In this document: positions 20,516-35,193 of the stretch, in pieces
Numbering within the stretch: position 1 is the stretch's first letter
Layout: each line of letters starts with the position of its first letter
NCBI GenBank assembly: GCA_951406725.2
Contig: OX597823.1
Span: forward strand, 27,962,001 to 28,026,000
DNA: 64,000 bases
DNA from: Octopus vulgaris
Taxonomy: Eukaryota
Reading direction: 5' to 3'
The notes under the pieces: model-generated
What the model was told of the DNA's origin: nothing
Database searches by the model: none
Seen by the model: only the letters and a program-made list of their open reading frames with translations
Position numbers and translations under genes: made by a program

Positions 20516-21130
20516 GGGCAGCGAGTTGGCAGAAACGTTAGTACGCCGAGCGAAATATTTAGCGATATTTCGTCTGCCGTGACGTTCTGAGTTCAAATTC
20601 CGCCGAGGTCGACTTTGCCTTTCATCCTTTCGGGGTCGATAAATTAAGTACCAATTACGCACTGGGGTCGATGTAATCGACTTAATCCCCTTGTCTGTCC
20701 TTGTTTGTCATCTCTGTGTTTAGCCCCTTGTGAGTAGTAAAGAAATAGGTATTTCGTCTGCCGTGACGTTCTGAGTTCAAATTCCGCCGAGGTCGACTTT
20801 GCCTTTCATTCTTTCGGGGTCGATAAATTAAGTACCAGTTACGCACTGGGGTCGATATATTCGATTTAATCCGTTTGTCTGCCCTTGTTTGTCCTCTCTG
20901 TGTTTAGCCCCTTGTGGGCAATAAAGAAATAAGAAACGCTAGCAAGCCGGGCGAAATACTTAGTGGTATTTCGTCTGTCTTTATGTTCTGAGTTCAAATT
21001 GCGCCGACGTCGACTTAACCTTTCATCCTTTTGGGGTCGGTAAATTAAACACCAGTTGCGTACTGAGGTCGATCTAATCGACTGGCCCCGTCCCCCAAAA
21101 TTTCGGGCCTTGTGCCTAGAGTAGAAAAGG
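20516..21130 (+). mobile_element. SINE family C tandem trimer
   Basis: GTTCTGAGTTCAAATT...CCTTTCATCCTTTCGGGGTCG-like core repeated three times (about 20584, 20768, 20985). Confidence 0.85.
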
Positions 21131-26815: not shown

Positions 26816-26935
26816 GCTTACGGCCATATCACGTTGAAAGCACCGGTTCTCGTCCGATCACCGAAGTTAAGCAACGTCTAGCCTAGTTAGTACTTAGATG
26901 GGTGACCGCTTGGGAAACCTAAGTGCTGTTAGCGT
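26816..26935 (+). rRNA. 5S rRNA gene copy, probably a pseudogene
   Basis: 120 nt GCTTACGGCCATATCACGTTGAAAGCACCGGTTCTCGTCCGATCACCGAAGTTAAGCAACG...AGTACTTAGATGGGTGACCGCTTGGGAAACCTAAGTGCTGTTAGCGT. Helix mismatches, AGTACTTAGATGG where 5S normally has AGTACTTGGATGG, and no oligo-T terminator. Confidence 0.92.
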
Positions 26936-32500: not shown

Positions 32501-33181
32501 ATGGTACATGAGTATTAAAACATAGAAGCGAAGCGGACAATAATATGTGAATGACCGTTAAGAATTAAAGATTGATTTGGCCATTAATTTTGAGGAACGT
32601 TATTGTGTTATATAACTTGAGATCATTGAAGCATGAAAGCAAAGAGGAGTGAAGAGAGACAAATTGTGTGACGACATCGGCATGAAGGCCATATCACGTC
32701 ATGGTTATATTTTCGGCCATTCTTAGTCAGGTGTTCTTTCTCAGAAATGTTTGTATATGTTACCAGGTGTGGGTCAATATAAAGGTCCTCACCCGTTAAC
32801 GAAAACAAAAAAGACCCCAACCTGCTGGGTGTTAACAACTGTATAGAAAACGATTATGAAAAAAAAAAAAATGGCGCAAACGAACCTGGGTGGGTGGGGA
32901 GAGGTTTTCGGAAAATTCACAAGATCTGATTTTTCCCTCATAACTTTCAGGAAAATGGATATAAATTGATTTTTCTTACGGAACCCTACGTTTTAGGCTA
33001 TGGAGAATCCGTTTCTGGTAAATATTGTTTGTAAAATTTCAATTTTTCAAAAAAAAATCCCCGAACTCCCTCCCCACCCAATTCTACAGCCTTGGCCTTC
33101 AAACAGGCTACCCACATGCTAGAAATATCAAGAAAATCTCACAAAAAATCTTACAAAACTATCTCTAACACAATTTTGCTA

Positions 33182-33259
<78 letters not shown>

Positions 33260-33340
33260 GGTCCCGGGTTGAGTCGGGGTTAACCACAGTAAATAAGGTA
33301 CTCAATACATAGCAGAGTAAATTAATTTATTTTATAGAAG

Positions 33341-33392
33341 GAGCTTCTACAGGACTAGAACTGTTTCATTCAAAGAAATCATCAGGAAGCTC
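33341..33392 (-). ncRNA. Type I hammerhead ribozyme (minus-strand twin)
   Basis: GAGCUUC-CUGAUGA-UUUCUUUGAAU-GAAA-CAG-UUCUAGUC-CUG-UA-GAAGCUC. Confidence 0.85.
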
Positions 33393-33449
33393 AGGAGCTT
33401 CCTGATGATTTCTTTTGAATGAAACAGTTCTAGTCCTGTAGAAGCTCCT
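33393..33449 (+). ncRNA. Type I hammerhead ribozyme, canonical core
   Basis: Helix I AGGAGCUUC:GAAGCUCCU (9 bp), CUGAUGA, helix II UUC:GAA, GAAA, helix III ACAG:CUGU. GUA cleavage triplet at 33438-33440. Confidence 0.88.
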
Positions 33450-33454
33450 TCTAT

Positions 33455-33505
<51 letters not shown>

Positions 33506-33549
33506 TATATATATTATATATTACACACACACACACAGACACAGACACA

Positions 33550-33599: not shown

Positions 33600-35193
33600 A
33601 CATGCGCATTGTTTGTTTTTGATTTTGTCGACTACACAGTATAGTAGGGGCAGTAGGACACCGTCTGTGAAAAAACACCACCATGACGCAATTCACTCTG
33701 CCAGAAATTTGGAAACGATTTGCTGTCATTCATCATCATCATTGTTCGACCGTGGTCGAGACAATGAAATTTACCATGCTACGCCAGACTTCACGGTCCA
33801 TCATGGCATTACAGAGGTCCTGTTGTTGGATGCCCGTATCCCTGGAGATTACATCAGGGTAGGAGAGTGTGCGCCCCCTGGTATTGCGAGTAGATGGCTT
33901 CCAGAGGAGAAGAGTAGAAATTACTTCTTTTTCAGTTCTACAACAATGTCCAGCAAACTGGACTCTCCTACCTTTCACAAGAGATGACACAGGTGGTAGT
34001 TTCCCATATATTTGCATTTTGGTTGGATGGCGCTTCCACGAGAGATTTTGAGCTCTCATAAGGAGGCGAGTGTAGGTTCTATCCAACCGCCTCTCAAGCT
34101 TCTTTGATAACGTCCAGGTTTCTGAGCCATATAGTAGAATTGGTTCGACTGTGGCTTTGAATATTTCAAGTTTGAAGTCTCTACTTAGATTTGATAACCA
34201 GATCTTATGCATGTCATTACAGGCTGACCAGGCCATACCCTTTCTAGTTAGAAAGTCTTTTCCAGATGATGATATGTATGACCCAAGATATTTATAATCA
34301 GAAACCATATTTAAGGGCGCATTGTTGAGAGTATGGATGATGCAATCACTGTTGGACAGGCACTTGTTTATGTATTCAGTTTTGGCCTCATTGAGGTAAA
34401 GACCTACACAATTTGAGGCTTGTTCAAGAGATTGTAAAAGAGACTGGGCATTGGAGAGAGAATCACTGTACTGTTTGGCATTCGCACCAGAAATTCCGAT
34501 ACGAACATTTCAGAGTATTCGGGCGTCAAACAGAGGATAGTGCAATCTGAGAACATGTTCCGTGAGTGATAAAATCAAACATCCAGTCAGCATCATGGTG
34601 TTTGGAGTGATCACTAGTGATGGCGATGTTATGCCTCCATTCATCCTCCCACACTGCCTCACATTCAACACGGAAGCCTACATCAAGTATCTGGAGCAGG
34701 TAGTGCTGCCCTGGGAGAAGAGGGTGGCTGCTGGAAGACCCTCTGTCTAAGGACTCTGCACCTCAAGCAGGAGAATCCAGTCATTGCTGTCAGACAATTT
34801 CTGCGAACATATCACCCCTAACATCTGGCAATCTAAATCCCCCGCCTGCAACCCCTTTGATTATTATGTGTGAGGTGTAGTTGAGCGAGGGATCAGCAAG
34901 ACTACTTTTAATACCAAAGATGAACTGAAGGCAAGGATTATGGCAGCATTCACCAACTTAAACAAGGAGACCGTCCAGAAGAGTTGCAGGAGATTCCGAA
35001 GTCGTCTGGAAGCCGTGGTTGAAACCGATGGCGATTTTATTGAATAAATTTACTGTTTAGTATTTCAAGATATTTTAATGTAATTTTGGTAAATATATCT
35101 GTTAAAATGAGATGTCAGTGTTATTTTCGTAATTATTATTTTTGTTACTATAATGTTATTTTTGCGTAATTTAGACAATTCATTCACCGCGTC

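Follow-up and report, generated by a model that had tools for sequence, protein, structure and literature searches.

Inverted 5'-truncated copies with a tail at either end are standard for Penelope-like retroelements (PLEs; PMC8557442). For the Hydra clade of these elements, Craig et al. 2021 (PMC8557442) describe a single ORF combining reverse transcriptase (RT) with a C-terminal GIY-YIG domain, a hammerhead in the pLTR, a (TA)n target and a protein signature of an RWK-type motif, DKT, a CxCX5C linker, CxxC and CxH without CCHH. Described Hydra elements are mostly shorter than 3 kb in all, PLE tails of 30-40 nt are described, and no transcription start is given for the clade in the accessible portion of that account. 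The Penelope elements of the rotifer Adineta vaga (Arkhipova et al. 2013, PMC3846280) carry head-to-head inverted pLTRs with a palindromic joint, an optional tail on one pLTR and putative TATA and Inr elements; their authors favour antisense self-priming and leave the question open. In PAc, a Poseidon PLE of Anolis and thus of another clade (Frangieh et al. 2024, PMC11167929), priming on two strands and at two sites has been obtained in vitro: both strands of an AT-rich target are nicked and extended, two internal start sites, with an AC-rich stem-loop at the start site, define the tail, and uncleaved RNA is the main template. The main text on PAc analyses neither inverted products nor the RNA 5' end.

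Hammerheads of PLEs are type I motifs in the pLTR in which a G-C pair at positions 10.1-11.1 is highly conserved; their activity in vitro is low, and opposite-strand pairs 100-700 bp apart are known from Schistosoma (PMC4209133). Natural hammerhead variants with U10.1-U11.1 have also been reported (PMC3088659). For the D. virilis Penelope, a start site within the pLTR and a TATA-less internal promoter are described (PMC2377424). Two further systems are close in outcome. In L1 twin priming, a second priming from the other DNA end gives end-joined inverted cDNAs that represent non-overlapping parts of one RNA, and an extra cap-derived G marks full-length 5' junctions (PMC11702581). Non-LTR retrozymes are short, non-coding, type I hammerhead elements derived from PLE pLTRs and arranged as head-to-tail tandem repeats (bioRxiv 10.64898/2026.07.22.740005).

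The locus described here lies in a 64,000-nucleotide stretch of the Octopus vulgaris genome (the window), where a stub of 203 bp (33257-33459) sits inside (TA)n and reads in the order (TA)n, tail, hammerhead, joint, hammerhead, (TA)n. The left target microsatellite (33180-33256) adjoins a unique 71-nt tail found on one arm only (33257-33327, minus strand), which continues the left arm and in the full element runs toward the ORF start. The left arm with its hammerhead occupies 33328-33391 on the minus strand, 33391 being position 0, that is, the first base of helix I and the putative transcription start. It is preceded by a G at 33392 (minus strand) that is not parental (parents have T, C or A at this place), followed across the joint by a two-base filler (33393-33394), a second non-parental G at 33395 (plus strand) and the tailless hammerhead arm (33396-33459, plus strand), which ends at an AT-rich tailless start site; both of the extra Gs that terminate the arms may be copies of an mRNA cap. 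The right target microsatellite, (AT)n at 33458-33521, adjoins the stub. In this copy, therefore, the minus strand holds tail and hammerhead and the plus strand the tailless hammerhead. As originally predicted, the palindromic arms (33328-33392 and 33395-33460, 65 and 66 nt, centred on A33393-G33394) are exact reverse complements except for a single T. This T lies in loop II, the same short arm recurs in L033 and L081, and the difference may be a homopolymer slip or a minor variant. The original prediction had confined the feature to the palindrome; the tail to 33257, the (TA)n at both ends, the parent element and the meaning of the centre were all found on follow-up.

At about 70 nt the tail is longer than the 30-40 described for PLEs (PMC8557442). 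It contains, by eye, a hairpin of 4 bp with an AC-rich loop (33263-33278, minus strand), 6 nt from the tail end and adjoining an 8-bp palindrome, which resembles the AC-rich stem-loop at the PAc start site. No other pieces of the family were found elsewhere in the window. A 256-aa frame at 33742-34509 (minus strand), 280 bp from the stub, is like the end of a LINE reverse transcriptase, matches in Pfam only DUF6451 (E 0.007) and shows no link with the stub. A single 5S rRNA copy (26816-26934, plus strand; 102 bits) follows a (TTA)n run and directly precedes a SINE-like repeat, and a 184-bp SINE-like unit is tandemly duplicated at 20566-20931 with 93% matches.

The two motifs had been described as canonical hammerheads, one per strand. 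Both are complete, with a helix I of 7-9 bp, a 4-bp helix III and a GUA site on each strand, and the window yielded exactly two hammerhead matches in a descriptor search, compared with 0.067 per window over 30 shuffles. In the plus-strand motif a 9-bp helix I (33393-33401/33441-33449) encloses CUGAUGA (33402-33408), a 12-nt helix II region, GAAA (33421-33424) and the 4-bp helix III, with cleavage predicted after 33440; in the minus-strand motif helix I has 7 bp and the predicted cut falls between 33348 and 33347. In the parent, helix I has 6 bp (33396-33401/33441-33446 in the right arm), the extra 1 bp on the minus and 3 bp on the plus strand being contributed by junction bases. The core CUGANGA/GAAA/UH and the open helix I place the motifs in type I. 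The word canonical did not hold, since positions 10.1-11.1 form U·U and not the usual G-C pair, ahead of a 3-bp helix II, and no Rfam hammerhead model was matched at its gathering score or at E<=10 (only microRNA hairpin models appeared, below their gathering scores). Compared with the PLE hammerheads of PMC4209133, those of the octopus likewise are type I motifs in the pLTR and occur in opposite-strand pairs, but they have a 4-bp helix III, an 8-nt loop and U10.1·U11.1 in place of the conserved G-C, and the two motifs touch; they are also unlike the motif listed for Hydra-1_oBim (PMC8557442, supplement). The U·U is present in all 304 arms aligned, in which the core is 98-100% invariant and only N7, loop II and loop III vary by more than 10% inside the motif, a count biased toward conservation because the anchors were allowed 4 mismatches. 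This pattern fits selection on the fold in the parent.

Folding predictions bear out the expectation that the hairpin would outcompete the ribozyme. In isolated motifs helix I forms with P 0.996-0.998 and helices II and III weakly (P 0.01-0.35), whereas a whole-element transcript is predicted to adopt the long hairpin (-117 to -120 kcal/mol), with the hammerhead helices at P 0.00 on both strands. In a read-through transcript of the stub both hammerheads are thus predicted to be shut by the long hairpin. In the parent RNA helix I is predicted to form weakly (P 0.005-0.25); the putative RNA begins with the 6-bp helix I itself, and so the usual extended helix I cannot form there. In the subfamily L288-L317, an A at loop III position 33 lengthens the loop III palindrome from 4 to 6 nt, which could favour dimers. 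A second stub type (L035, L038, L054, L055, L060 and others) has one hammerhead with helix I extended to about 22 bp; it accounts for 20 of 43 pattern matches, L060 holding two in tandem, and with its ribozyme predicted to be unblocked it could be the most active form in read-through transcripts.

The parent element was reached through copies without an inverted partner, which run upstream into a common region rich in simple repeats; in one of them RT and GIY-YIG frames of the same orientation lie 3.1 kb upstream. Among 20 ORF loci taken from 150 scored genome matches to the parent protein (mostly long frames), 18 carry the hammerhead downstream in the orientation of the ORF, at a distance of 2.0-3.8 kb, and each of the 20 has one within the 9.9 kb extracted. 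In L149, which is complete from pLTR to pLTR, the 713-aa ORF (RT and C-terminal GIY-YIG) starts 183 nt after helix I, whereas the PAc start codon lies inside its hammerhead (PMC11167929); the left arm and tail of the window locus are 96% identical to the pLTR of L149 over 141 nt. The parent protein has RWR at 38, DKT at 116, CxCX5C at 567, CxxC at 667 and CxH at 695, no CCHH and one Cys before YIG. The ORF has no direct RT or GIY-YIG match in Pfam, and its homologues carry PF01541, PF00078 and PF26215. RT and GIY-YIG in one ORF between pLTRs, together with an inverted 5'-truncated copy bearing a one-sided tail, are the characters of an EN+ PLE. The parent is assigned to the Hydra clade by its motifs and its insertion into (TA)n. 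It shares with the described members the ORF, the protein motifs, the pLTR hammerhead, the target, the inverted truncated copy and the tail at either end (PMC8557442), and it differs in a 3' region of 2.0-3.8 kb, where those elements are mostly under 3 kb in all. This region (L116, L148-L167) is made up of simple repeats (TG/TA) in which SINE and LINE fragments are nested.

We regard it as almost certain that the locus is a PLE stub. The two back-to-back hammerheads are the remnant of one Penelope-type insertion and not a purpose-built switch. Two other assignments were rejected: a non-LTR retrozyme, since head-to-tail tandem hammerhead units are missing and a single dispersed head-to-head stub is found where retrozymes are tandem repeats; and a MITE or foldback DNA transposon, since one end has a unique tail, the joints vary and the parent is a retroelement. 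Target duplication cannot be read because the target is (TA)n.

The window locus is one ordinary copy among thousands. Exact tail motifs number 3,962 in the genome (exact pattern count), helix I 3' arms 7,150 by a pattern that does not exclude uncut context and whose first 100 matches are all preceded by TA, and 673 loci show two hammerhead cores on a perfect AGCT-centred palindrome. When the genome was searched with the plus arm, 603 candidates came up, of which 40 were scored; all 40 are 100% identical over the 66 nt and 39 have an inverted partner. This supports, at the level of the family, the youth that had been proposed from the near-identical arms, and the fold-back point is roughly shared by other copies. 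Ninety tail copies were sampled as they follow along the genome: the initial 30, and 60 out of the 62 after them, two tandem-array members being skipped. Eighty of the tails end exactly, 7 stop 2 nt short and 3 are unscored; (TA)n or (CA)n follows the tail in all 90. Seventy-one of these copies are short; 60 of the 71 short tail arms have an inverted partner, and among the 90 no short copy carries the tail on both arms. Of 62 tailless arms sampled, 61 end between +61 and +75. L109 and L110 (G000:C1 57.29-57.31 Mb) belong to an 8.1-kb tandem array with a unit of stub plus a gag-like zinc-knuckle frame. Among contigs assembled from sequencing runs, the family occurs in runs labelled as five organisms, and none of the runs that contain the stretch is registered as RNA.

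The joints among these copies speak to what the palindrome is. The window's own joint occurs in 10 of 43 pattern matches, and in the 9 of these with loci the tail is on the left in 5 and on the right in 4. The high copy number of the family, the recurrence of an exact joint and the predicted blocking of both motifs by the hairpin could be read as a self-propagating non-autonomous element or an antisense switch over two ribozymes. This is very improbable, since there are dozens of different joints, the stub lacks a TATA box, and copying one master would not place the tail on either side of the same joint; a special two-ribozyme arrangement is not supported, and the palindrome is a by-product of PLE insertion. 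Still less credible is an assembly or library fold-back artefact. The palindrome is short and lies between long microsatellites, and its centre is spanned by no contig, which proves nothing either way; against this, the arms have different outer ends, the same joint is found at 9 other places, inverted ends also occur kilobases apart, and contigs of two other runs (X15 and X16) contain arm-arm joints.

How two inverted arms come to be joined is best judged from long copies. Both ends could be inspected in 10 long inverted copies, and every one of these has a single tail, on the ORF-bearing (direct) arm in 3 and on the short inverted arm in 7. The arms are very unequal, the inverted arm joining the ORF arm far from symmetry, and fillers lie between the arms in L105, L079 and L198. 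For the A. vaga Penelopes it has been proposed that one cDNA (or antisense RNA) folds back and self-primes (PMC3846280), to which later centre deletions would have to be added here. The 673 perfect palindromes on a self-complementary AGCT agree with this, as does the concordance of the arms. Arms of short stubs agree at all scored diagnostic sites (20/20, 24/24 and 32/32; random 0.36-0.52), and in 49 of the first 50 AGCT-palindrome loci; discordant arms were noted only in L040, L077 and L084, by eye and outside the scored set. However, concordance does not separate the models, because both predict it when activity is confined to a single source locus or subfamily at any one time. Fold-back must start both arms at one point, yet the long copies join a short inverted end to mid-ORF; it cannot put a tail on the copied arm if the first arm has none, as in 7 of 10; and unpaired arms also stop at position 0 with a G. 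Single-cDNA fold-back is therefore improbable. Unequal arms with the tail only on the short arm cannot come from it, whereas two primings at fixed sites can give them, and two separately primed cDNAs are very probably the origin of the arms.

Where the cDNAs ended is indicated by the inner ends of the arms. Counted from local alignments between -139 and +50 of position 0 (n=125, omitting 7 ends beyond +50 and 20 long arms), with bases common to both arms entering twice, 54 ends fall at -1 to +2 (binomial P 6e-56 vs uniform), 39 at +3 to +12, 20 at +13 to +42 and 9 upstream, and 3 of the 125 are close to the cleavage site (+45). Upstream of the helix I 3' strand the uncut sequence is retained in each of 30 samples. 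From the pile-up at position 0 and the uncut sequence upstream it follows that the templates were uncleaved and that copying stopped at position 0. The commonest joint, that of the 673 perfect palindromes, cannot tell an end at 0 from one at +2. In 91 arms that read through this position a TATA box begins at -29 in 86 and at -30 in 2 and is absent in 3, although variation affects 13 of 31 upstream columns.

Of 24 informative ends, meaning ends neither parental nor in a perfect palindrome, 18 have G immediately ahead of position 0 (P 4e-7 vs 0.25); for most of the 18 the G can also be read from the opposite arm. Across the genome, 493 arms have a G at -1 that is not preceded by G, and all 30 sampled were junctions, compared with 6 of 30 in each sample of the arms with A (375) or C/T (1,340) at -1, the rest belonging to other subfamilies. 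The parents seen never have G at this place. Direct joins of (TA)n, G and position 0 occur in L230, L247 and L250, with one G each, and L239 has three G ends, one of them on an arm that extends across the tail as far as the ORF. The A at -1 of one subfamily is at odds with a pyrimidine-purine start at 0, and the TATA-less promoter of the D. virilis Penelope (PMC2377424) is a further point against such a start. Taken together, the sequences make it likely that position 0 is a capped transcription start. The G could also arise by re-annealing on helix I, because the base after the helix I 3' strand is C, and such re-annealing of cDNA ends does occur, as the 20 of 43 matches with long helix I show; RT adding an untemplated C may be another source.

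Two ways to the same centre were rejected: a parvovirus-like flip of the centre loop, as these joints lack one base of the perfect palindrome on each side, and a splice acceptor at position 0-1, as AG is kept at the joints and AAG or ATAG subfamily contexts leave the stop unchanged. Assembled contigs cannot reveal RNA starts or cuts, and a contig piece of run X3 that begins at -1 is a merge of two upstream variants (depth 55+73 vs 122) and, with the summed depth so similar, counts neither for nor against a start at -1. The same run shows loose ends at C runs on L149 (1610-1622) that are likely products of strand invasion, not real RNA ends; they resemble what we take to be a template-switch adapter.

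The chief competitor to a capped start accepts the stub and the twin priming and has copying halt for structural reasons, or dissociate, where it meets the border of helix I at position 0, the G having another source than the cap. The stop does coincide with the outer pair of helix I, the long-helix-I products show that cDNA ends anneal there, and some unpaired ends (L034, L225) carry AGG and not a single G. Such a stop would leave a TATA box fixed at -29 without indels across subfamilies unexplained; long arms cross position 0 unhindered in 12 of 12 cases, helix I of the parent RNA is predicted to be weak, and the three direct target joins carry one G only. We consider it unlikely, if less so than fold-back. 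For a capped start the passage of the long arms is expected if they were primed at the downstream pLTR. The short templates would then be mRNA 5' ends or short RNAs from solo pLTR promoters, and in L239 an mRNA 5' end at least once. L239 (760-1640, minus strand; G000:C1 near 65.713 Mb) joins three arms, one with the tail, one that carries the ORF but is internally deleted and one tailless, and all three start with G and position 0, which suggests a template jump after run-off.

The scheme that we favour is as follows. Transcription would be driven by the pLTR's TATA promoter and begin with the first base of helix I. The endonuclease would cut (TA)n and both DNA ends would prime, one at the tail end (about +134) and the other at the tailless site (about +65), two fixed ends that are seen in the genome copies. 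Both cDNAs would cross the uncut ribozyme and stop at position 0, the stop being that seen in the arm ends, often with an additional C placed opposite what is probably a cap. The variety of junctions would reflect linkage of the two cDNA 3' ends through short homology or filler, presumably by end-joining. The second hammerhead would be a by-product of twin copying of the same sense RNA. As a whole, we find it probable that the stub arose from two cDNAs that ran off uncleaved sense RNA and were linked by the ends corresponding to the cap. Such an origin recalls L1 twin priming in the second priming from the other DNA end, the end-joined inverted cDNAs and the extra G, and differs from it in that both cDNAs copy the same 65 nt, which yields a palindrome. 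The features shared with the A. vaga Penelopes are the head-to-head inverted pLTRs, the palindromic joint, the optional one-sided tail and the putative TATA, and the copies described here point to sense and probably capped RNA and two primings where self-priming from antisense was favoured there. With PAc the family has in common the AT-rich target, an AC-rich stem-loop at the start site, two internal sites that set the tail, an uncleaved template and, very probably, extension of both DNA strands, and with the retrozymes a short, non-coding unit with a type I hammerhead from PLE pLTRs.

Head-to-head stubs with a one-sided tail are already published, and the locus is an ordinary product of a known kind of element. 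In the openly accessible literature searched, no start site at helix I and no cap-derived G at PLE joints were found. Apparently new, then, are the ending of the arms at the first base of helix I and not at the cleavage site, the TATA box 29 nt upstream and the extra G.

The value of these observations is mechanistic, the origin of PLE head-to-head repeats and the role of the hammerhead being stated open questions in PMC3846280, PMC8557442 and PMC11167929. The chances seem to us even that a capped mRNA driven by the TATA box begins with the hammerhead as its first 51 nt, so positioned that the cut would remove the mRNA's own cap, and that the mini-palindromes are fossils of a dimeric enzyme twin-priming on uncut sense RNA. 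If true, this would settle how Penelope head-to-head repeats form, from a sense template by twin priming and not by antisense self-priming, and PLE promoters would become mappable from genome sequence alone. A ribozyme cut 45 nt into the mRNA would detach the cap, which might switch the RNA among translation, decay and copying. In addition, the hundreds of near-perfect hairpins of about 60 bp that such insertions leave behind may feed double-stranded RNA into silencing of the family.
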